Below are positions 4,997 through 11,748 of a stretch of 32,000 nucleotides of DNA, piece by piece. Every line of letters starts with the position of its first letter. Position 1 is the first letter of the stretch. Made by a program: the position numbers and the translations under genes. The stretch is from Nostoc sp. PCC 7120 = FACHB-418 (GTDB lineage Bacteria > Cyanobacteriota > Cyanobacteriia > Cyanobacteriales > Nostocaceae): contig NC_003272.1 of NCBI RefSeq assembly GCF_000009705.1, positions 4,560,001-4,592,000 of the forward strand, in the 5' to 3' direction. The notes under the pieces are model-generated. The model made no database searches, was not told the DNA's origin, and worked only from the letters and a program-made list of their open reading frames with translations.

Positions 4997-5138
4997 TATA
5001 CTTCCAATAAAATCTCTCGACAAGTTACAGATTCAATCTGTCCGTTTCTTGCAAGTTCTAAACAACTATAAGGACTACCTCGCCAGCCTAACCTGAAAAG
5101 AGCGTATTTGTATCAAAAACAACTATATAAGATATCAT
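4997..5138 (-). pseudogene. Degraded PIN-family toxin gene (frameshift plus truncation)
   Basis: An ATG at 5138..5136 overlaps the TGA of the upstream ORF (ATGA coupling). Frame 0 reads MISYIVVFDTNTLFSG* (PIN N-terminal hhhDTN motif). The +1 frame continues LGWRGSPYSCLELARNGQIESVTCREILLEV*, which resembles the following segment of PIN toxins. The remainder of the domain is absent. Confidence 0.5.
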
Positions 5139-5377
5139 TCTGATTCGTGCGTCAAATCATCTATAAAGTCTTCTCGCTCTTGTTCGGTCATAATATCCCA
5201 ATTAAGCCCGCGTGACGAACTCAAAGAGCGCATCTGTAATTCTCCGTCATCAAGTCTACTTTGCCACCAAGCATCTTGTTCTGCTTTGATGGCTTGTAAT
5301 ATCATACGCTGTTCTGGAACTGCTAATTGCTTTACCAATGATATAACTTGCTCAATATTAAGTTGAAGTGTTGCCAT
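5135..5377 (-). CDS. Putative antitoxin-like small helical protein (80 aa)
   Basis: Intact ORF whose stop overlaps the start of the PIN remnant in the 4-nt ATGA arrangement typical of type II TA operons. The C-terminus is acidic. I recognised no named domain. Confidence 0.5.
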   Translation of the reverse strand: MATLQLNIEQVISLVKQLAVPEQRMILQAIKAEQDAWWQSRLDDGELQMRSLSSSRGLNWDIMTEQEREDFIDDLTHESE

Positions 5378-5497: not shown

Positions 5498-5689
5498 CTA
5501 TAGATTGGATTCTGAGGATTGTTTACTCTTTACATCCTGAAAATCTTGAATTTTGGCATATAAACTAGTAACTGTTTCTTGAGAAAACAGCTTTTCTTTC
5601 ACTTGTAAATAATCGCCTTCACTTAGTTTACAGGTTGCCCAAAACTTCATTACTTTAGATGGTTCTAAGTGAGTGAGTAAAACTTGCAT
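5498..5689 (-). CDS. Hypothetical small protein (63 aa)
   Basis: ORF 25 nt downstream of the truncated PIN ORF on the same strand. It has no motif, so it may be non-coding. Confidence 0.25.
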   Translation of the reverse strand: MQVLLTHLEPSKVMKFWATCKLSEGDYLQVKEKLFSQETVTSLYAKIQDFQDVKSKQSSESNL

Positions 5690-5714: not shown

Positions 5715-6032
5715 TTAATTACTTTTATTGTCATTTTCTACCTCAAAAATAAAATTATTTGGATTGATGACTGTGATTGATAAATTCTGACCTCGGTTGA
5801 TTAGTCTCTTGTCGCAAGTGATAAAGTAATCGCTTTGAGAAGCTTCTGCACAAGCTACATGAAGTGCATCAATAGCTTTAACGCCTTCTTGTTCTAGCTG
5901 TTCTGCCCTGTTTCTAATATTTTCATCTACCAATACTCTCAAAGCAGCTATTTGTAAGTATCGATCCATTGATTGTTGATTGACCACAAAAGGGTTACGG
6001 CTATTTTCATATTCTAGAACTGAAGAACTCAC
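5715..6032 (-). CDS. PIN-domain protein fragment, N-terminally truncated (probable pseudogene)
   Basis: The 105-aa ORF keeps the C-terminal PIN motifs (YENSRNPF ... AIDALHVACAEASQSDYFITCDKRL). It lacks the N-terminal segment carrying the first acidic DT(S/C) motif. GC-hairpin repeat DNA (6048..6162) begins 16 nt upstream of its start. Confidence 0.55.
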   Translation of the reverse strand: MSSSVLEYENSRNPFVVNQQSMDRYLQIAALRVLVDENIRNRAEQLEQEGVKAIDALHVACAEASQSDYFITCDKRLINRGQNLSITVINPNNFIFEVENDNKSN

Positions 6033-6047
6033 TAATTCTATAAAAAA

Positions 6048-6162
6048 CCCCTCTCCAAACCTCTCCCCTCCAAGGAGAGAGGCTTCAAAACCTTCATTTT
6101 TCGTTTTGAGCTTTCAAGATATTTAAGCCCCTCTCCGCGTCGGAGAGGGGTTGGGGAGAGGT
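6048..6162 (+). repeat. GC-rich hairpin small dispersed repeats
   Basis: Two modules. One is cccctctccaaacctctcccctccaaggagagagg. The other is gcccctctcc-gcgtc-ggagaggggttggggagaggt, with a perfect 9-bp stem at 6128..6150. The same family occurs at 9255..9288. Confidence 0.75.
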
Positions 6163-6207: not shown

Positions 6208-6354
6208 GAAGATTCTCCTTTGCAGCAAGAACATTCTCACTGGAAACAGGAAAGTTCTCGTTTGAAACAGAAACATTCTCGTTTGCAACACGAAAGTTCG
6301 GGTTCTGAACATGAAACTTTGAGTTCAAAACAGGAAACTTGGAGATAAAAGCTT
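6208..6354. repeat. Degenerate 21-nt tandem repeat, about 7 copies
   Basis: Units read gaagattctcctttgcagcaa / gaacattctcactggaaacag / gaaagttctcgtttgaaacag / aaacattctcgtttgcaacac / gaaagttcgggttctgaacat / gaaactttgagttcaaaacag / gaaacttggagataaaagctt. Confidence 0.7.
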
Positions 6355-6392: not shown

Positions 6393-8579
6393 TTAGAGAG
6401 AATCGCGTAAATTTGCTAAATTCTCACGCACTCTCACAGTATTAGGATGATTCCCTCCTAAACTTCCCTCGAAAATAGTCAAAGCTTGAAGATAGAGAGG
6501 TTCGGCTTGGTCGTACTTTCCTTGGGAATCATAGAGCTTAGCCAAGTTGTTGAGGCTGATAGCGACTGAGGGATGATTGTCTCCTAGCAGGCGTTGTTTA
6601 AGTTCTAAAGCTTGGAGATACAGGGGTTCGGCTCGCTCGTAAATTCCTTGGGAATAGTAGAGATATGCCAAGTTGTTGAGGCTGGCTGCGACATCGGGAT
6701 GATTGTCTCCCAGCAGGCGTTGTCTGAGTTCTAAAGCTTGGAGATACAGGGGTTCGGCTTGGTCGTACTTTCCTTGGGAATCGTAGAGTCTTGCCAAGTT
6801 GTTGAGGCTGGTGGCGACATTGGGATGATTGTCTCCCAGCAGGTGTTGTCTGAGTTCTAAAGCTTGGAGATACAGGGGTTCGGCTTGGTCGTACTTTCCT
6901 TGGGTGCGGTAGAGATATGCCAAGTTGTTGAGGCTGGTGGCGACATCGGGATGATTGTCTCCCAGCAGGCGTTGTCTGAGTTCTAAAGCTTGGAGATACA
7001 GGGGTTCGGCTTGGTCGTACTTTCCTTGGGAATCGTAGAGTTCAGCCAAGTTGTTGAGGCTGGTGGCGACATCGGGATGATTGTCTCCCAGCAGGCGTTT
7101 ATGGAGTTCTAAAGCTTGGAGAAACAGAGGTTCGGCTTGGTCGTACTTTCCTTGGGAATCGTAGAGATATGCCAAGTTGTTGAGGCTGGTGGCGACATCG
7201 GGATGATTGTCTCCCAGCAGGCGTTTATGGAGTTCTAAAGCTTGGAGATACAGGGGTTCGGCTTGGTCGTACTTGCCTTGGAAATAGTAGAGTTCAGCCA
7301 AGTTGTTGAGGCTGGTGGCGACATCGGGATGATTGTCTCCCAAACGGTTTTGTACTGTTGATAAACACTGTGTTTTCCAAGGTTCGGCTTGGCTATATAG
7401 CCCTTGTCCTTGATAGAAGCTACCCAAGCCGACGAAAGGCAAAATGAAATTTTCATCACTGACGTATTGAATGAGATTGTTTGCTACTTCAGCTATGTGT
7501 GGTATGGCAAGGGAAACAGCGTTAATTTTTTCAAGGGTAGGAGTCTGAGGAATTTGTTTAGCAACTGCTACTATTACACCGCAAAATGATCGCCTAAATT
7601 CCTCCGCTTGCTCTAAACCTGTAAACTTAGATTGGAAAAATTCCCGCAGTAGGGGATGTAGTTGATAGATTCCTTCACCTTTGCGCTGGAGTAAATGCAG
7701 ATTCAATAATTTATCATCCCGAATTTCCTCTAACTCATCCTCATCTTTCTCTGGTAAGCACTGTTCTACTAAGTTCCAGGGTATGGGTGCGGCTGCAAAT
7801 AAACTAAGTACACAGCCTAATAACCTATCATCCTCTGCTAATTCCTGCCAACTCAACACAAAGGCGGCTTGCACTCCCCTTTGTGCTGTCATATCAGCAT
7901 CTGGCTTGACAAGTGCAGGTTGTTCTAATCGCTTTTTCTCCAAACGCTGCATCATTGCTGATAAGGATAAATCTGGTTTTCGCGCCAAATATCGCCCCAC
8001 CAACTCTAAACCCAAAGGCAAATACCCCAGCCATTCGCACAACTGTTTTGCTACATCTAATTCTCTCTCAATTCGCTCTGGTGTTTCTGCCAGCAAAGAC
8101 CGTAACAACTGCAACGCTGCATCTGGTTGTAATACATCTAAAGATAGTTGCTTGATGGCTGCACCCAACTTTTGGCGGGTAGTCATCAACACTTTAAATC
8201 TGGAAGATGCGCCCTGTAGGTAAGGTCTGATTTGCTGATAATCTGTAACATCATCCACCACTAGCAGCACATTACCCTCACGCCAATTCCGCCAGCAGTA
8301 TTGTACTTGTGCAGGTAAATCAAATTCTTCTGGTGGCTTTAAATCAAGCTGAGTTCTGGCAAACTGTACCACTTGCAAGCCCACATTCTCAGCTTTCGCC
8401 TGTAACCAGCACAGTCCACCTTTGTAGTTTTCGCGCTGAGTCATGGCATATTGCAAGGCGAGTTCTGTTTTACCCAGTCCACCCATTCCCAAAATAGCCG
8501 CAATCGCTACTTGGTTATTTTCCTGCAAAAGTTTATGGAGTTCTTGCAGTTCTTCATCGCGTCCCACAAATTTCACCAC
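6393..8579 (-). CDS. STAND NTPase: NB-ARC domain plus 7-8 TPR (42-aa, kinesin-light-chain type) repeats, NLR-like
   Basis: Walker A GMGGLGKTELA, Walker B LLVVDDV, MTTR motif, then 42-aa units NHPDVATSLNNLAxLYxxQGKYDQAEPLYLQALELxxRLLGD. The track start is a GTG at 8579. The first ATG is codon 32, inside the P-loop. See the finding on the in-frame TGA. Confidence 0.9.
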   Translation of the reverse strand: MVKFVGRDEELQELHKLLQENNQVAIAAILGMGGLGKTELALQYAMTQRENYKGGLCWLQAKAENVGLQVVQFARTQLDLKPPEEFDLPAQVQYCWRNWREGNVLLVVDDVTDYQQIRPYLQGASSRFKVLMTTRQKLGAAIKQLSLDVLQPDAALQLLRSLLAETPERIERELDVAKQLCEWLGYLPLGLELVGRYLARKPDLSLSAMMQRLEKKRLEQPALVKPDADMTAQRGVQAAFVLSWQELAEDDRLLGCVLSLFAAAPIPWNLVEQCLPEKDEDELEEIRDDKLLNLHLLQRKGEGIYQLHPLLREFFQSKFTGLEQAEEFRRSFCGVIVAVAKQIPQTPTLEKINAVSLAIPHIAEVANNLIQYVSDENFILPFVGLGSFYQGQGLYSQAEPWKTQCLSTVQNRLGDNHPDVATSLNNLAELYYFQGKYDQAEPLYLQALELHKRLLGDNHPDVATSLNNLAYLYDSQGKYDQAEPLFLQALELHKRLLGDNHPDVATSLNNLAELYDSQGKYDQAEPLYLQALELRQRLLGDNHPDVATSLNNLAYLYRTQGKYDQAEPLYLQALELRQHLLGDNHPNVATSLNNLARLYDSQGKYDQAEPLYLQALELRQRLLGDNHPDVAASLNNLAYLYYSQGIYERAEPLYLQALELKQRLLGDNHPSVAISLNNLAKLYDSQGKYDQAEPLYLQALTIFEGSLGGNHPNTVRVRENLANLRDSL
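6396..7340 (-). repeat. Array of near-identical 126-bp coding repeats (TPR units of the NLR-like gene)
   Basis: Long identical DNA stretches recur with a 126-nt period (ggttcggcttggtcgtactttccttgggaatcgtagag..gccaagttgttgaggctggtggcgacatcgggatgattgtctcccagcaggcgtt). Confidence 0.85.
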
Positions 8580-8648
8580 CCCACTCAGGGGTAAATTTTG
8601 CGGTATTTCAGGATTTAACCTTACCCGTTCCTGTTCGGGCGACTGTAG

Positions 8649-9107
8649 TCAGTTGTATGTGTTGTGCTGTTCCTGAATTGTGATTTGTTGGGCAACCATT
8701 GCCCCTTTTTCCGCTTGGATACTTTCTGCTAACTTGGCAAAGTTATTAACAATTGCTGGCTGCGCTTGAATTTCTGCGGATAATTTTTGAATTTCCTCAG
8801 CCTTGGGGGATTTATCTTGATTGATTGTGGCTTCTACTTCCCGCACTGATTGAGCAATTTCGGTGTCTTTATCGGCTGCGGCTTTCAACTCCAACACAGC
8901 TTGACCATAATCTAACGCCTGCTGTGTGTCTTCCTGTGACGTATTGGCTAACAAGGGCAGCTTATTTTTCTGGCGCAGCTTGGCGATTAACTCGTTACTT
9001 TTTTCTAATGCTGCTTCCCCCAGCTTTTCGCCTGTTTTTTCTAAAGCCTTAGTTAAAACTATAGTAGCGATCGCAGTTCCTACGGCTGTTAAGGTTACTG
9101 GTTCCAT
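8649..9107 (-). CDS. N-terminal helical domain ORF of the NLR-like locus (152 aa), hydrophobic N-terminal helix, possible membrane-targeting effector
   Basis: Same reading frame as 6393..8579. It starts MEPVTLTAVGTAIATIVLTKALEKTGE, continues with amphipathic helices, and ends ..QQITIQEQHNTYN at the TGA at 8651..8649. Confidence 0.6.
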   Translation of the reverse strand: MEPVTLTAVGTAIATIVLTKALEKTGEKLGEAALEKSNELIAKLRQKNKLPLLANTSQEDTQQALDYGQAVLELKAAADKDTEIAQSVREVEATINQDKSPKAEEIQKLSAEIQAQPAIVNNFAKLAESIQAEKGAMVAQQITIQEQHNTYN

Positions 9108-9191
9108 AACTTAACAATAATAATACGAGATTATACTTATGTTTCACAGTTTAGCGCATTAAGAAACGTCGAGTTTGGAACCTAACCCCAA

Positions 9192-9288
9192 CCCCTTCCC
9201 TACAAGGGAAGGGGCTAAAAGTGGAGAATTTAGTGAAAAAATAACGGTTTTAAGCCTCTCCCCGCGTCGGGGAGAGGTTGGAGAGGGG
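9192..9288 (+). repeat. GC-rich hairpin small dispersed repeats
   Basis: One perfect 10-bp stem, ccccttccct-aca-agggaagggg (9192..9214). One 9-bp stem, cctctcccc-gcgtc-ggggagagg (9255..9277), followed by ttggagagggg. Same family as 6128..6162. Confidence 0.75.
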
Positions 9289-9300
9289 TTCTTAATTTCG

Positions 9301-11748
9301 CTACCGATGAGCTAACCGACGCAATAACAGAGAGTTAGTCACTACACTAACTGAGCTGAATGCCATCAGTGCAGCTGCACCGGAAGGACTGAGGACAAAA
9401 CCCCAGTTGGGCAGCAGAACACCTGCGGCTAGAGGGATACCGATGGTGTTGTAGGCGAAAGCCCAGAATAGATTTTGGCGGATTTTGTTGAAGGTGGCGC
9501 GGCTGAGATGAATTGATTCCACGACATCACTAATGCGATCGCGCATCAAAACAATCTGTGCGGTTTCCATTGCTACATCTGTACCTGAGTGTAAGGCAAT
9601 ACCTACGTCTGCTTGAGATAACGCCGGGGCATCGTTGATACCATCGCCAACCATTGCCACTTTAGCGCCAGATTTTGTTTGTAGTTCTTGAATAAAGGCG
9701 GCTTTTTTGGCGGGAGGAACACCAGCCATCACATCAGCCCTATCTATACCTAGTTGTTGGGCTATGGCGTGCGCTGCTTCTGGGCGATCGCCACTTAGCA
9801 GTATTACCCTTAAACCCATCTGACGCAATTTGTCTACTGTAGTTTGGGCATCTGGTCTGGTAGTATCTTGTACACCAATCAATCCCGCCAAACTCTCCCC
9901 AATTGCCACACCAACGACGGTTTTACCTTGGGTGGCGAGCTTTTGCGCTTCCTGTTGAGCAGTTTCACTCCAAGTAATTCCATGCCAACTCAACCAATCC
10001 CCGTTACCTAACAGCACAGTTTGACCGTCAACGACAGCAGAAACACCCATTCCTGGTTCAGTATGGAAGTCTACAGCCTCTGGAATCGATAACTGTTGCT
10101 GTTGTGCAGCTTGCTGAATCGCTCTAGCTAAGGGGTGATGTGTGCCGCTTTCCACTGCGGCTGCTAGTTGTATGAGGGAATGAGAGGGGTGTAGGGGTGT
10201 GGGGAAAAGACTTCTTTCCTGTTTGGCTGTGAAACTTATTTCATCGGGACTGCCTTCTGCAAATACAAGACAATCGGTGACAACGGGATTACCTGTGGTG
10301 AGAGTGCCGGTTTTATCAAAAACTACGGTGTCTAGTTGATGGGCTTTTTCTAAAACATCGCCACCCTTGATTAATAAACCCCGTTCTGCACCTATACCTG
10401 TGCCTACCAGAATCGCTGTAGGTGTGGCTAGTCCCAAGGCACAGGGACAGGCGACGACCATGACGGCGATCGCTAGTTTTAAACTAATTAAGAGTGGGGA
10501 GTTGTTGGTAATATGAGCGGCGTGGTTCATCATCATTTCCATATCACCACCGGATACGGTGATATCTGGCCAGATGTGAGTGCCGAAGCAATACCAGAAG
10601 ATGAATGTTAATAAAGATGCTGTTAATATGCCGTAGGTAAAGTAACCTGCTACTGTATCGGCTAATTTTTGGATTGGGGCTTTGCGAGTTTGGGCTGCTT
10701 CTACCAAGGCGACGATGTGGGCGAGGGTGGTATCATTACCTGTGCGGGTGGCTTGGATAGCGATCGCCCCTGATTGGTTAATCGTTCCGGCTGTGACTAT
10801 ATCCCCTGGTTGCTTCATGACCGGCACAGCTTCCCCAGTCAACATCGACTCATCTAAAGTTGTCTGTCCAAAACGTACCTCCCCATCCACGGGGATTTTA
10901 TCACCCGGTAATACTTGCAACCATTCTCCCACCCTTACCTGTTCAGCCGGGATTTCTACAGTATTTGTTCCCAGCCCCATCTTCTCTAGGTCTGGGTTAG
11001 CAATCAATCGTGCTACTTGTGGTTGCAGTGCTAACAGTTGTCTAAATGCCGCCGCCGCCTTACCTCTGGCTTGTTGTTCTAAGGTTCTGCCCAACAAAAT
11101 AAACCCCAGCATCATCACTGGTTCATCAAAGAAGCACTCCCAACCCATTTGCGGAAACAGCAGCGCCACAACGCTGGCTGTGTAGGCTGTCAGCGTTCCC
11201 AATCCCACCAAGGTATTCATGTTAGGTGCATTCCGCCGCCAACCAAGCCACCCATCAACTAAAATAGGGCGACCGGGAATTAGTAAGGCAACTGTTGCTA
11301 GTCCAAAGTGGAACCAAATGTTATTTAATATGGGCAGAATTGAATTGCCAATGTTGCCCAAATGCCCGATCCCCGAAAAGACCAGCAGCACAGCAGCAAT
11401 CATTAACTGCCGGAATGCTGTCTGCATTTGTTGGCGTTGTCTTGCGGCTGAGTCTTCTATTGTTGATTCACTTGCCTTACTGTTGGCTTTTCGCGGTTGA
11501 GTAGGAAATCCAGCAGATGTCAATCGCTGTGCCAACATATCTGGATCTACCAGACCGACTTCCGACTCTACCACCGCTACCTCTGTAGCCAAATTCACAC
11601 AGGCGTTCTTCACACCTGAATATTGGGTGAGCTGTCGCTCTACTGCCTTTACACACCCAGCACACTTCATCCCTCCGACATCCAGAATAATTTTCTCTAG
11701 TGTGGGGGTGAGTTCTGGGTCAAGCTGAGTTTGTGGGACAAGTTGCAT
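9301..11748 (-). CDS. Heavy-metal (Cu+-type) translocating P1B-type ATPase, CtaA/PacS-like
   Basis: 815-aa ORF. N-terminal HMA domain GMKCAGCVKAVERQL, TM CPC motif (VVACPCALGLATP), phosphorylation site DKTGTLT, HP motif (THHPLA), hinge MVGDGINDAPAL. Confidence 0.95.
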   Translation of the reverse strand: MQLVPQTQLDPELTPTLEKIILDVGGMKCAGCVKAVERQLTQYSGVKNACVNLATEVAVVESEVGLVDPDMLAQRLTSAGFPTQPRKANSKASESTIEDSAARQRQQMQTAFRQLMIAAVLLVFSGIGHLGNIGNSILPILNNIWFHFGLATVALLIPGRPILVDGWLGWRRNAPNMNTLVGLGTLTAYTASVVALLFPQMGWECFFDEPVMMLGFILLGRTLEQQARGKAAAAFRQLLALQPQVARLIANPDLEKMGLGTNTVEIPAEQVRVGEWLQVLPGDKIPVDGEVRFGQTTLDESMLTGEAVPVMKQPGDIVTAGTINQSGAIAIQATRTGNDTTLAHIVALVEAAQTRKAPIQKLADTVAGYFTYGILTASLLTFIFWYCFGTHIWPDITVSGGDMEMMMNHAAHITNNSPLLISLKLAIAVMVVACPCALGLATPTAILVGTGIGAERGLLIKGGDVLEKAHQLDTVVFDKTGTLTTGNPVVTDCLVFAEGSPDEISFTAKQERSLFPTPLHPSHSLIQLAAAVESGTHHPLARAIQQAAQQQQLSIPEAVDFHTEPGMGVSAVVDGQTVLLGNGDWLSWHGITWSETAQQEAQKLATQGKTVVGVAIGESLAGLIGVQDTTRPDAQTTVDKLRQMGLRVILLSGDRPEAAHAIAQQLGIDRADVMAGVPPAKKAAFIQELQTKSGAKVAMVGDGINDAPALSQADVGIALHSGTDVAMETAQIVLMRDRISDVVESIHLSRATFNKIRQNLFWAFAYNTIGIPLAAGVLLPNWGFVLSPSGAAALMAFSSVSVVTNSLLLRRLAHR

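Follow-up and report, generated by a model that had tools for sequence, protein, structure and literature searches.

Candidate programmed readthrough of a conserved UGA-C between a Bell-like protein and an NLR body in Nostoc sp. PCC 7120 and related loci

In a 32,000-nt stretch of the Nostoc sp. PCC 7120 genome (NC_003272.1, positions 4,560,001 to 4,592,000 of the forward strand; hereafter the window), two open reading frames (ORFs) on the minus strand share one frame and are separated by a single TGA. Is this a broken gene, a pair of genes, or one gene with two products? An ATG at 9107 opens an ORF of 152 codons (8652..9107, minus strand; protein BAB75480.1), which stops at the TGA at 8651..8649. 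Past the TGA, the same frame runs through 23 sense codons (LQSPEQERVRLNPEIPQNLPLSG) to a GTG at 8579, and from there through an ORF of 728 amino acids (aa) to a TAA at 6393..6395; the full span (9107-6393+1) is 2715 nt, or 905 codons. A first-pass annotation, made from the sequence alone, had described two ORFs split in this way, and a check of the ORFs and their translations bore it out. Comparing this junction with those of related loci, we consider it likely that the TGA is a site of programmed readthrough, at which an abundant short effector and a rare effector-NLR fusion would be produced from one frame.

The part downstream of the TGA shows the features of an NLR (STAND) receptor, namely an NB-ARC domain with a Walker A motif and a C-terminal repeat sensor. 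Residues 31-242 of the post-stop translation match NB-ARC (PF00931, E 1.1e-16, 61.3 bits against a cut-off of 23.5; 7923..8558), with the Walker A sequence GMGGLGKT encoded at 8466..8489. Approximately eight TPR_12/TPR_10 units make up the sensor array at 6408..7436 (TPR_12, E 6.5e-133 over 8 stretches; TPR_10, E 1.5e-109). The NB-ARC-TPR receptor recognised at first pass was confirmed with Pfam. As annotated, the NLR ORF begins directly at NB-ARC, and it would have an N-terminal effector on the same polypeptide only if the UGA is read through.

The stop codon and its context

A lone in-frame stop in an otherwise continuous frame of 905 codons looks like a fresh nonsense mutation. It could also be a sequencing error; in either case the locus would be a once-fused NLR with a pseudogene downstream of the TGA. 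Inactivation of the receptor was one of the readings put forward at first pass, and bodies have indeed decayed at some loci (L051, L075, L078, L079, L086 and L090). However, the whole 2715-nt span recurs without a single difference in three independent assemblies (a draft genome, the complete genome CP183817.1 and a JGI metagenome contig), which carry TGA, not a sense codon, at 8649..8651. Because these assemblies are identical, the TGA is real and not an assembly error. The 152-aa protein is present on 36 contigs. The TGA is found at every one of more than 130 loci, though the flanking protein has diverged to less than 50% identity; the 3' context, the shared frame and the open frame downstream are kept along with it, and the downstream ORF is under purifying selection (see below). 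Based on the comparative data and the identical assemblies, a pseudogene or an assembly error was ruled out; the probability left to decay or artefact is negligible, and the nonsense-inactivated receptor is refuted.

For the comparison among genomes we fetched 79 loci, 78 of which were intact, giving 74 unique junction sequences. Without exception, the 78 intact loci have TGA as the stop of the small ORF and a frame that stays open for 131-1308 codons past it, into NB-ARC-TPR bodies at approximately 55 loci and NACHT bodies at approximately 23. Five distant members from metagenomes (<50% identity) end in TGA as well; four of them continue in frame into an NLR-type or P-loop body, and the fifth (L086) has a decayed body with a stop approximately 68 codons past the TGA. 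The first-pass annotation had pointed to an alignment of orthologues as a check on the stop; in that alignment it is conserved as TGA across the related loci.

Conservation extends into the nucleotides that follow. In the 74 unique junctions TGA is invariant (74/74), C follows at +4 in 73 and T at +5 in 71, and the CG at +10/+11 does not vary, nor does the third-position G of the YCG codon. The resulting context, TGA CTR NAN YCG YCY, reads TGACTACAGTCGCCC in the window (8637..8651), where the pattern TGACTRNANYCGYCY occurs once versus 0.00 expected. As controls, we took the 3' ends of the NLR ORFs at the same loci, which use TAA (34), TAG (16) and TGA (10) and have TGAC in 1 of 60, and background ORFs of at least 200 codons, of which 13 of 370 (3.5%) end in TGAC. 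That bacterial ribosomes terminate poorly at UGA when C comes next is well documented, and the autoregulation of release factor 2 (RF2) depends on it (PMC5289835). A conserved leaky stop within a conserved 3' context is one mark of a readthrough site. Judged by these comparisons, the stop at the junction is selected as a weak stop.

RNA structure and linker downstream of the stop

Employing RNAalifold on 61 unique sequences, we identified a 5-bp hairpin (stem 1) after an 8-nt spacer from the UGA. In the window it occupies 8623..8640, with GCCCG (8640..8636) as the 5' arm, AACAGGAA as the loop and CGGGU (8627..8623) as the 3' arm. Of the cells in the alignment, 97% are paired, and CG<->UA and GC<->CG exchanges are found at three of the five pairs. 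Double changes were counted in 47 cells, versus 15±4 in shuffled alignments, and none of 500 shuffles reached 47; when the partners were slid by 1-3 columns, only 7-46% paired. Metagenomes provided independent copies. The scanning pattern consisted of the fixed stop context plus a downstream AAAGTYAA and left the 3' arm of stem 1 unconstrained. All five pairs are formed in 55 of 56 unique matches with true ORF context, in 13 combinations of arms, whereas the true chance matches (n=12) form 0-4 pairs. Five other matches of low context turned out to be decayed real cassettes, with all five pairs formed. As a conclusion from sequence comparison, stem 1 is solid.

The 3' part of the stem 1 loop can pair with a segment located 9 nt after stem 1, which would produce an H-type pseudoknot. 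The proposed stem 2 of the window (8609..8633) joins CAGGA (8633..8629) with UCCUG (8613..8609), loop 3 being AAGGUUAAA (8622..8614). A first pooled alignment of the pseudoknot split stem 1 by gaps, and the NB-ARC-type and NACHT-type cassettes were then analysed apart. In the NB-ARC-type alignment the inner four pairs hold in most sequences and two of them covary; in the NACHT-type alignment GGGAG/CUCCC is 99% paired and invariant. In the metagenome set all four pairs are present in 41 of 54 sequences, with a mean of 3.70 pairs versus 3.50±0.03 in shuffles (0/2000 reaching it). Covarying variants of stem 2 include CAGGA/UCCUG, GGGA/UCCC, CGGA/UCCG and GGCA/UGCC, the last two of which occur in the metagenome set. 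Stem 2, and with it the pseudoknot, is probable. A conserved structure at a suitable spacing, here 8 nt, is a second mark of a readthrough site.

Two further features of this region were noted. An outer stem, UGACU/AGUYA, that would pair the stop itself is 98% paired but essentially invariant; being uninformative, it was left out of the model. In one subgroup of the NACHT-type cassettes (e.g. positions 6406-6450 of L054), the pseudoknot loop contains a Shine-Dalgarno-like GGGGAGGAUGGG and an out-of-frame AUG with a 4-codon ORF.

Nucleotide conservation beyond the requirement of the amino acids may have another cause. The junction could be mainly a site of recombination or cassette exchange at the DNA level, shuffling effectors onto NLR bodies, with the stop as a by-product; tail classes and effector types (Bell-like, TIR, hydrolase) do join varied NLR bodies exactly at this boundary. 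However, the covariation preserves pairing and includes G-U pairs, which on the other strand would be A-C mismatches, and this points to the sense-strand RNA; because G-U pairs are frequent, stem 1 is specific to that strand. Recombination also gives no account of TGA-C or of the kept frame. As the main function of the junction it is distinctly unlikely; as an added property it is compatible with readthrough.

A hairpin a few nucleotides past an in-frame UGA is also the layout of the bacterial selenocysteine insertion sequence (SECIS), as in fdhF. The UGA could accordingly be decoded efficiently, as selenocysteine or by a dedicated suppressor tRNA, and mainly the fusion would then be made. Against this, the selenocysteine trait was not detected in Cyanobacteria (PMC1794560), the element had no match among the Rfam families, SECIS families included, even at E<=10, and the window contains no tRNA gene. 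Moreover, the junction is a linker and not a redox site, a stop-less relative (P0244, see below) has Ser-Lys at this place and not Cys, and UGA-C is the hallmark of weak RF2 termination. Given the literature on Cyanobacteria and the null result in Rfam, selenocysteine was set aside as unlikely, and efficient decoding of the UGA by either route appears very improbable. Translational bypass, or a 'stop hop', was rejected too: there are no matching take-off and landing codons, as the UGA is preceded by varying sense codons (AAC, TTC, TTT, ACT) and followed by CUR.

Is the segment between the stop and NB-ARC translated? From TGA to Walker A there are 52, 53, 54, 55, 61 or 64 codons in the NB-ARC class and 109-125 in the NACHT class. 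Because these spacings vary by whole codons, every indel in the linker, always a multiple of three, preserves the frame. Based on the Nei-Gojobori method (NG86), the ratio of nonsynonymous to synonymous substitution (dN/dS) is 0.36 for linker codons 10-24 and 0.33 for the first 100 NB-ARC codons. At linker codons 0-9 synonymous change is depressed and dN/dS is 0.86, as expected if a constraint at the RNA level overlaps the coding one. Values for the upstream domain were left unused, since fixed offsets misalign proteins of unequal length. By this comparative evidence the linker is under coding constraint and probably translated; in the window, the Pro-rich linker of 23 codons (8580..8648) would be translated only if ribosomes pass the UGA.

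Alternatively, two separate proteins may be made. Ribosomes would then always stop at the UGA, and the NLR would start at GTG 8579, at a non-canonical codon or by termination-reinitiation; in the last case the hairpin or pseudoknot would hold the ribosome or unmask a start instead of promoting readthrough. Bacteria commonly couple termination to reinitiation, annotation pipelines predict two genes, and the close homologues of the small protein are all annotated as stand-alone. Potential starts are present in the window. The downstream ORF has no ATG before codon 32, which lies within GMGGLGKT, and the first-pass annotation regarded GTG 8579 as the only possible start; in fact, GTG or TTG is found in frame at linker codons 23, 24, 27, 40 and 52, and a GTG GTG just before FVGR is shared with many NB-ARC-type loci.

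The comparison of loci, however, argues against independent initiation. In the first 19 post-stop codons there is no in-frame ATG, GTG or TTG at any locus except L048 (a TTG directly after a TGA-T stop). The approximately 20 codons that precede any possible start are constrained at the protein level. At four loci (L031, L054, L059 and L070) neither ATG, GTG nor TTG occurs before Walker A, yet the ORFs are 662-1195 codons long. Separate proteins would give no reason for the shared frame at every locus or for indels in multiples of three; the post-stop codon is CUR and not a start, without an ATGA- or TGATG-type overlap, and an ordinary terminator need not be TGA-C. In identical DNA, gene callers place the NLR start inconsistently (728, 724 or 727 aa). 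Separately initiated two-gene orthologues, which the first-pass annotation had named as a finding that would exclude readthrough, were not found among the related loci. A same-frame downstream ORF that is under purifying selection and has no start of its own is a third mark of a readthrough site, and we regard two separate proteins as an unlikely explanation. Among the readings given at first pass, readthrough of a weak UGA-C is thus the one favoured by the comparative data, with the covarying hairpin/pseudoknot, the constrained linker and the start-less loci speaking for it. Of the two-part effector/sensor system proposed beside it, the expectation of two products stands and the remainder falls.

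The small protein and other effectors at the junction

With the 152-aa protein as a single query we obtained 191 homologues, and with a profile of 40 of them, 698. In both searches the best 120 hits listed are without exception stand-alone; they are 89-199 aa long and come mostly from Nostocales. A HMMER scan of 1.84 billion representative proteins returned 351 clusters, and only 4 of the best 150 exceed 300 aa. No match to the protein was found in Pfam, NCBIfam or PADLOC, and no significant one in a PDB sequence/profile search or in two Foldseek runs; versus the PDB, Foldseek gave nothing below E 2.7, the weak matches being BCL-2/BAK-like (template-modelling score 0.23-0.27).

AlphaFold2 with 100 sequences predicted six helices (residues 6-25, 31-46, 67-80, 82-97, 101-114 and 117-139) at a mean predicted local distance difference test score (pLDDT) of 68.6; with 40 sequences the model was poor (pLDDT 56). 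The segment coding for helix 1 (MEPVTLTAVGTAIATIVLT) lies at 9033..9107. Compared by eye, the N-terminus MEPVTLTAVGTAIATIV (MEPVTLT) resembles the 'MEPIS' motif, which has been reported at the N-terminus of Bab, Bell, Hell and some antiphage NLRs (bioRxiv 10.1101/2024.11.07.622273). Residues M1, L6, T7, A8, A12, I13 and A14 are at least 90% conserved among 100 homologues. By its motif, architecture and context the small protein is treated here as Bell-like, which is less than demonstrated membership of the family. The Bell/HeLo-type effector suggested at first pass is thus supported by the MEPVTLT N-terminus, the all-helical prediction, the N/Q tail and a position shared with TIR and hydrolase effectors, but not by any sequence or fold match to a solved Bell or HeLo structure. 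We also asked whether the family is that of the published Nostoc punctiforme Bell example, RCJ33357.1. It is not; the family member in that genome is RCJ37669.1.

The family consists of a conserved core of approximately 130 aa and swappable C-terminal tails, for example AEKGAMVAQQITIQEQHNTYN, NVFQGNTFTGTNIF, ...EKGAMVAQQITIQEQHNTYN, ...GGIAGQSINIGTYNN and ...NLNQAQNITINQTNTF. In the window, the N/Q-rich tail comprises residues 133-152 (8652..8711) and was modelled at low confidence (pLDDT <50). The tails are modular and of low pLDDT, and in composition they agree with that reported for BASS motifs (Q, N, G, V, I). Tail classes A and B are each found with both NB-ARC and NACHT bodies. After the stop, no copy of the tail is present at any locus; a Pro-rich linker is found there in place of the NLR-side motif that characterises BASS pairs. 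A copy of the tail on the NLR side would arise only via the readthrough product.

One relative from a metagenome, P0244 (L197), lacks the stop and has the Bell-like core, tail and NACHT in one ORF (...TFNF-S-KEPP...). It was not accepted as clean proof of a functional fusion: ATC replaces ATG before helix 1, and the gene may be decayed, with helix 1 perhaps untranslated. In another relative, P0257, the same N-terminal domain is fused to a dynamin-like GTPase. The family is multi-copy, several genomes contributing more than one locus; in total, cassettes are known from at least 376 genome loci and 108 metagenome stretches. Scytonema hofmanni UTEX 2349 (L063), for instance, has two cassettes of a Bell-like ORF, TGA and an NLR body, at 2218 and 7186, approximately 5 kb apart; L090 is a similar case.

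The cassette is also used with other types of effectors. In 59 of the 81 matches to the metagenome pattern, the TGA is flanked on either side by long ORFs that share one frame. The upstream ORF is Bell-like in 46 of these, alpha/beta-hydrolase-like in 7 (Abhydrolase_6 / DUF676) and TIR_2 in 1 (E 3.8e-16); in the other 5 it is cut by contig ends. N/Q-rich tails of one kind are found on different effectors, NIGVLNQNTTIENQNITQNL on a hydrolase and KIGNVNQNTTIENQTFNQEF on a Bell-like protein. TIR and alpha/beta-hydrolase are effector types reported with BASS motifs beside bacterial NLRs. As far as these sequence matches indicate, the cassette is a general effector-NLR junction. An alpha/beta-hydrolase or TIR ORF that runs up to the TGA cassette, with an NLR body following in the same frame, is found at L101, L103, L124, L127, L130, L149, L155 and L166.

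In the surroundings of the two ORFs, a consensus scan yielded a sigma-70-like promoter candidate (GTGAAA-16-TATTAT, 9120..9147, minus strand) directly upstream of the small ORF, which is weak evidence because 1 site was found versus 3.4 expected. Between the two ORFs the scan found no promoter-like or terminator-like site on the minus strand, a result of similarly little weight. Perfect GC-rich hairpins of 10 bp with 3-nt loops (CCCCTCTCCG/CGGAGAGGGG and relatives) flank the two-ORF unit at 6128-6150, 9192-9214 and 9255-9277; these may serve as terminators or belong to a small family of repeats dispersed in Nostoc. The TPR-coding region contains a 126-nt tandem array (6481..7342; 6.8 copies, 91% identity), which suggests ongoing homogenisation or shuffling of repeats in the sensor part. 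The same 126-nt array lies behind a 502-N assembly gap in AP018216.1 (L082), and the annotation shows no NLR gene there. In the spacer 3' of the NLR stop (6243-6344) there are two adjoining 21-nt tandem arrays of approximately 2.7 copies each, with 77-78% matches, and a similar repeat-rich spacer follows the NLR of L063.

Farther 3' of the NLR, the minus strand carries a 105-aa ORF (5715-6032) with a weak PIN match and small ORFs at 5498-5689 and 5135-5377. This is the neighbourhood described at first pass as decayed toxin-antitoxin genes, a description for which the weak PIN match is the sole support. The upstream neighbour (9301-11748, minus strand) encodes a copper-type P1B ATPase with HMA, E1-E2_ATPase and Hydrolase domains and is apparently unrelated. 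The NLR ORF (6393-8579) is presumably all3780, and a link of the locus to the heterocyst-differentiation regulon would follow only if this identity holds.

Proposed mechanism and relation to known systems

We propose that the two ORFs form a single unit of transcription and translation. Most ribosomes would terminate at the UGA-C at 8651..8649, releasing the 152-aa Bell-like protein with its hydrophobic 'MEPVT' helix, held within a helical bundle, and its short N/Q/G-rich tail. A minority would decode the UGA, most likely by near-cognate tRNA-Trp, in which case the junction peptide of the fusion would be GAMVAQQITIQEQHNTYN-W-LQSPEQER. Readthrough would be aided by the CUR-NAN-YCG context and by the hairpin/pseudoknot 8 nt past the stop, located at the mRNA entry channel. 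Its product would be rare, a complete NLR of approximately 905 aa consisting of effector, tail, linker, nucleotide-binding oligomerisation domain (NOD) and sensor. Upon sensing a ligand, the fusion would oligomerise via the NOD and cluster its N-terminal effector-plus-tail modules. The clustered tails may then recruit or template the free short protein via the identical tail, in an amyloid/BASS manner, leading to membrane attack and cell death. The templating step is modelled on HET-S/NWD2 and Bab/Agp; we put it forward tentatively, as an analogy that may well not apply.

Because both products would come from one ORF, the tails on the receptor side and the effector side would be identical. Identity by construction would explain an NLR without its own copy of the motif, and also the free shuffling of tails and NLR bodies. 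One frame read in two ways would likewise account for the conservation of TGA-C, the strict frame and the constrained start-less linker. It would also explain why stop-less fusions are nearly absent from more than 240 close homologues and why tails, effectors and NLR bodies are freely shuffled at the boundary. From this pattern we infer that readthrough occurs, that its rate is low and that the structure stimulates it.

Several points weigh against the proposal. The argument for readthrough is one of comparative sequence analysis, and we know of no demonstration of structure-stimulated readthrough for bacterial ribosomes. With 5 bp and 4-5 bp both stems are short, and the folding energy of the region is unexceptional (z = -0.94). 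The NACHT group shows no variation in stem 2, and in the NB-ARC group the outermost pair of this stem is weak. The covariation is located in coding sequence of related loci, and independent compensatory events are fewer than the counts of cells. In the window, a GTG at linker codon 23, 24 or 27 could start an N-terminally bare NB-ARC protein. On the side of the effector, the Bell assignment combines the N-terminal motif with context, without an HMM or fold match, and the templating step draws on tail composition, tail modularity and analogy.

All-in-one NLRs (the HeLo/HELL-NLRs of fungi, the CC-NLRs of plants, bacterial Avs2 and bNACHT with MEPIS) have the architecture predicted here for the long product. 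They are ordinary single ORFs, whereas at the present junction the fusion would be formed only on readthrough and the lone effector by default. In phage Q-beta, the UGA before the A1 extension is bypassed at a low frequency to give an extended minor product; that case is from a phage and has no known structured stimulator. The prfB (RF2) gene has a UGA-C site with a weak RF2 signal (PMC5289835), as found here, but uses it for +1 frameshifting. The gag-pol signal of murine leukaemia virus (MuLV; PMC4178896) is like the one proposed here in its in-frame stop, its abundant short and rare long products, its 8-nt spacer and its compact H-type pseudoknot. MuLV differs in using UAG, eukaryotic ribosomes and eRF1, in its longer stems and 18-nt loop 3, and in being viral; the element described here would lie in a cellular gene, depend on UGA-C and bacterial RF2, and have an A-rich loop 3 of 9 nt beside stems of 5 bp and 4-5 bp.

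With respect to the protein parts, the closest likeness is to the Bell/BASS-NLR pairs (Dyrka et al. 2020, 10.1101/2020.01.06.895854) and Bab/Agp (Ibarlosa et al. 2024, 10.1101/2024.11.07.622273), which also have a small helical protein with a hydrophobic 'MEP..' helix and a tail of approximately 20 aa rich in N/Q/G. In the Bell/BASS pairs, as here, the small protein is located directly upstream of an NB-ARC-TPR or NACHT NLR, and the tails are also found on TIR and alpha/beta-hydrolase. Bell domains and NLRs are reported to be abundant in Nostocaceae, the lineage of the window. In those pairs, however, the NLR carries a motif copy at its own N-terminus and each gene has a separate start (with a 4-bp overlap in Saccharothrix), whereas at the present loci the NLR has no motif copy, and a single frame is interrupted by a conserved UGA-C followed by a probable RNA pseudoknot. 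Stop codons or readthrough are not mentioned in either paper. In full-text literature, searches for readthrough or recoding together with NLR, NACHT, Bell, amyloid signalling, cyanobacteria or Nostoc did not reveal a description of this arrangement, and the matching passages of a broad review on recoding (PMC5009743) contain no comparable bacterial case. The parts (NLRs, Bell-like effectors, pseudoknot-assisted readthrough) are known; what seems to be new is their combination in a conserved bacterial gene family.

More generally, these loci may represent a widespread, undescribed class of cyanobacterial immune-type receptors with one frame and two products. In such receptors a pseudoknot-assisted leaky UGA would set the ratio of free effector (Bell-like, TIR or hydrolase, with a prion-like tail) to fusion, and the same tail would nucleate the free effector; we hold the chances for and against this generalisation to be about even. 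The stop itself could conceivably be a sensor, in that weaker RF2 termination or suppression of UGA would raise the amount of fusion and so prime the system or set it off. Candidates for such an influence are phage suppressor tRNAs, stop-codon-recoding phages and translation stress.

If readthrough takes place as proposed, the junction would be the first conserved cellular readthrough signal of the pseudoknot type in bacteria, and a conserved chromosomal case in bacteria of structure-assisted readthrough, which so far is known mainly from viruses and eukaryotes. Hundreds of cyanobacterial pairs annotated as a hypothetical protein plus a TPR or NACHT protein would each be one recoded gene with two products. 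How receptor and effector motifs stay matched while they diversify would have a simple answer: they are encoded by one ORF. In multicellular cyanobacteria, an RNA element of approximately 45 nt that sets the stoichiometry, and that can be mutated synonymously, would provide a handle on programmed cell death and antiphage defence.

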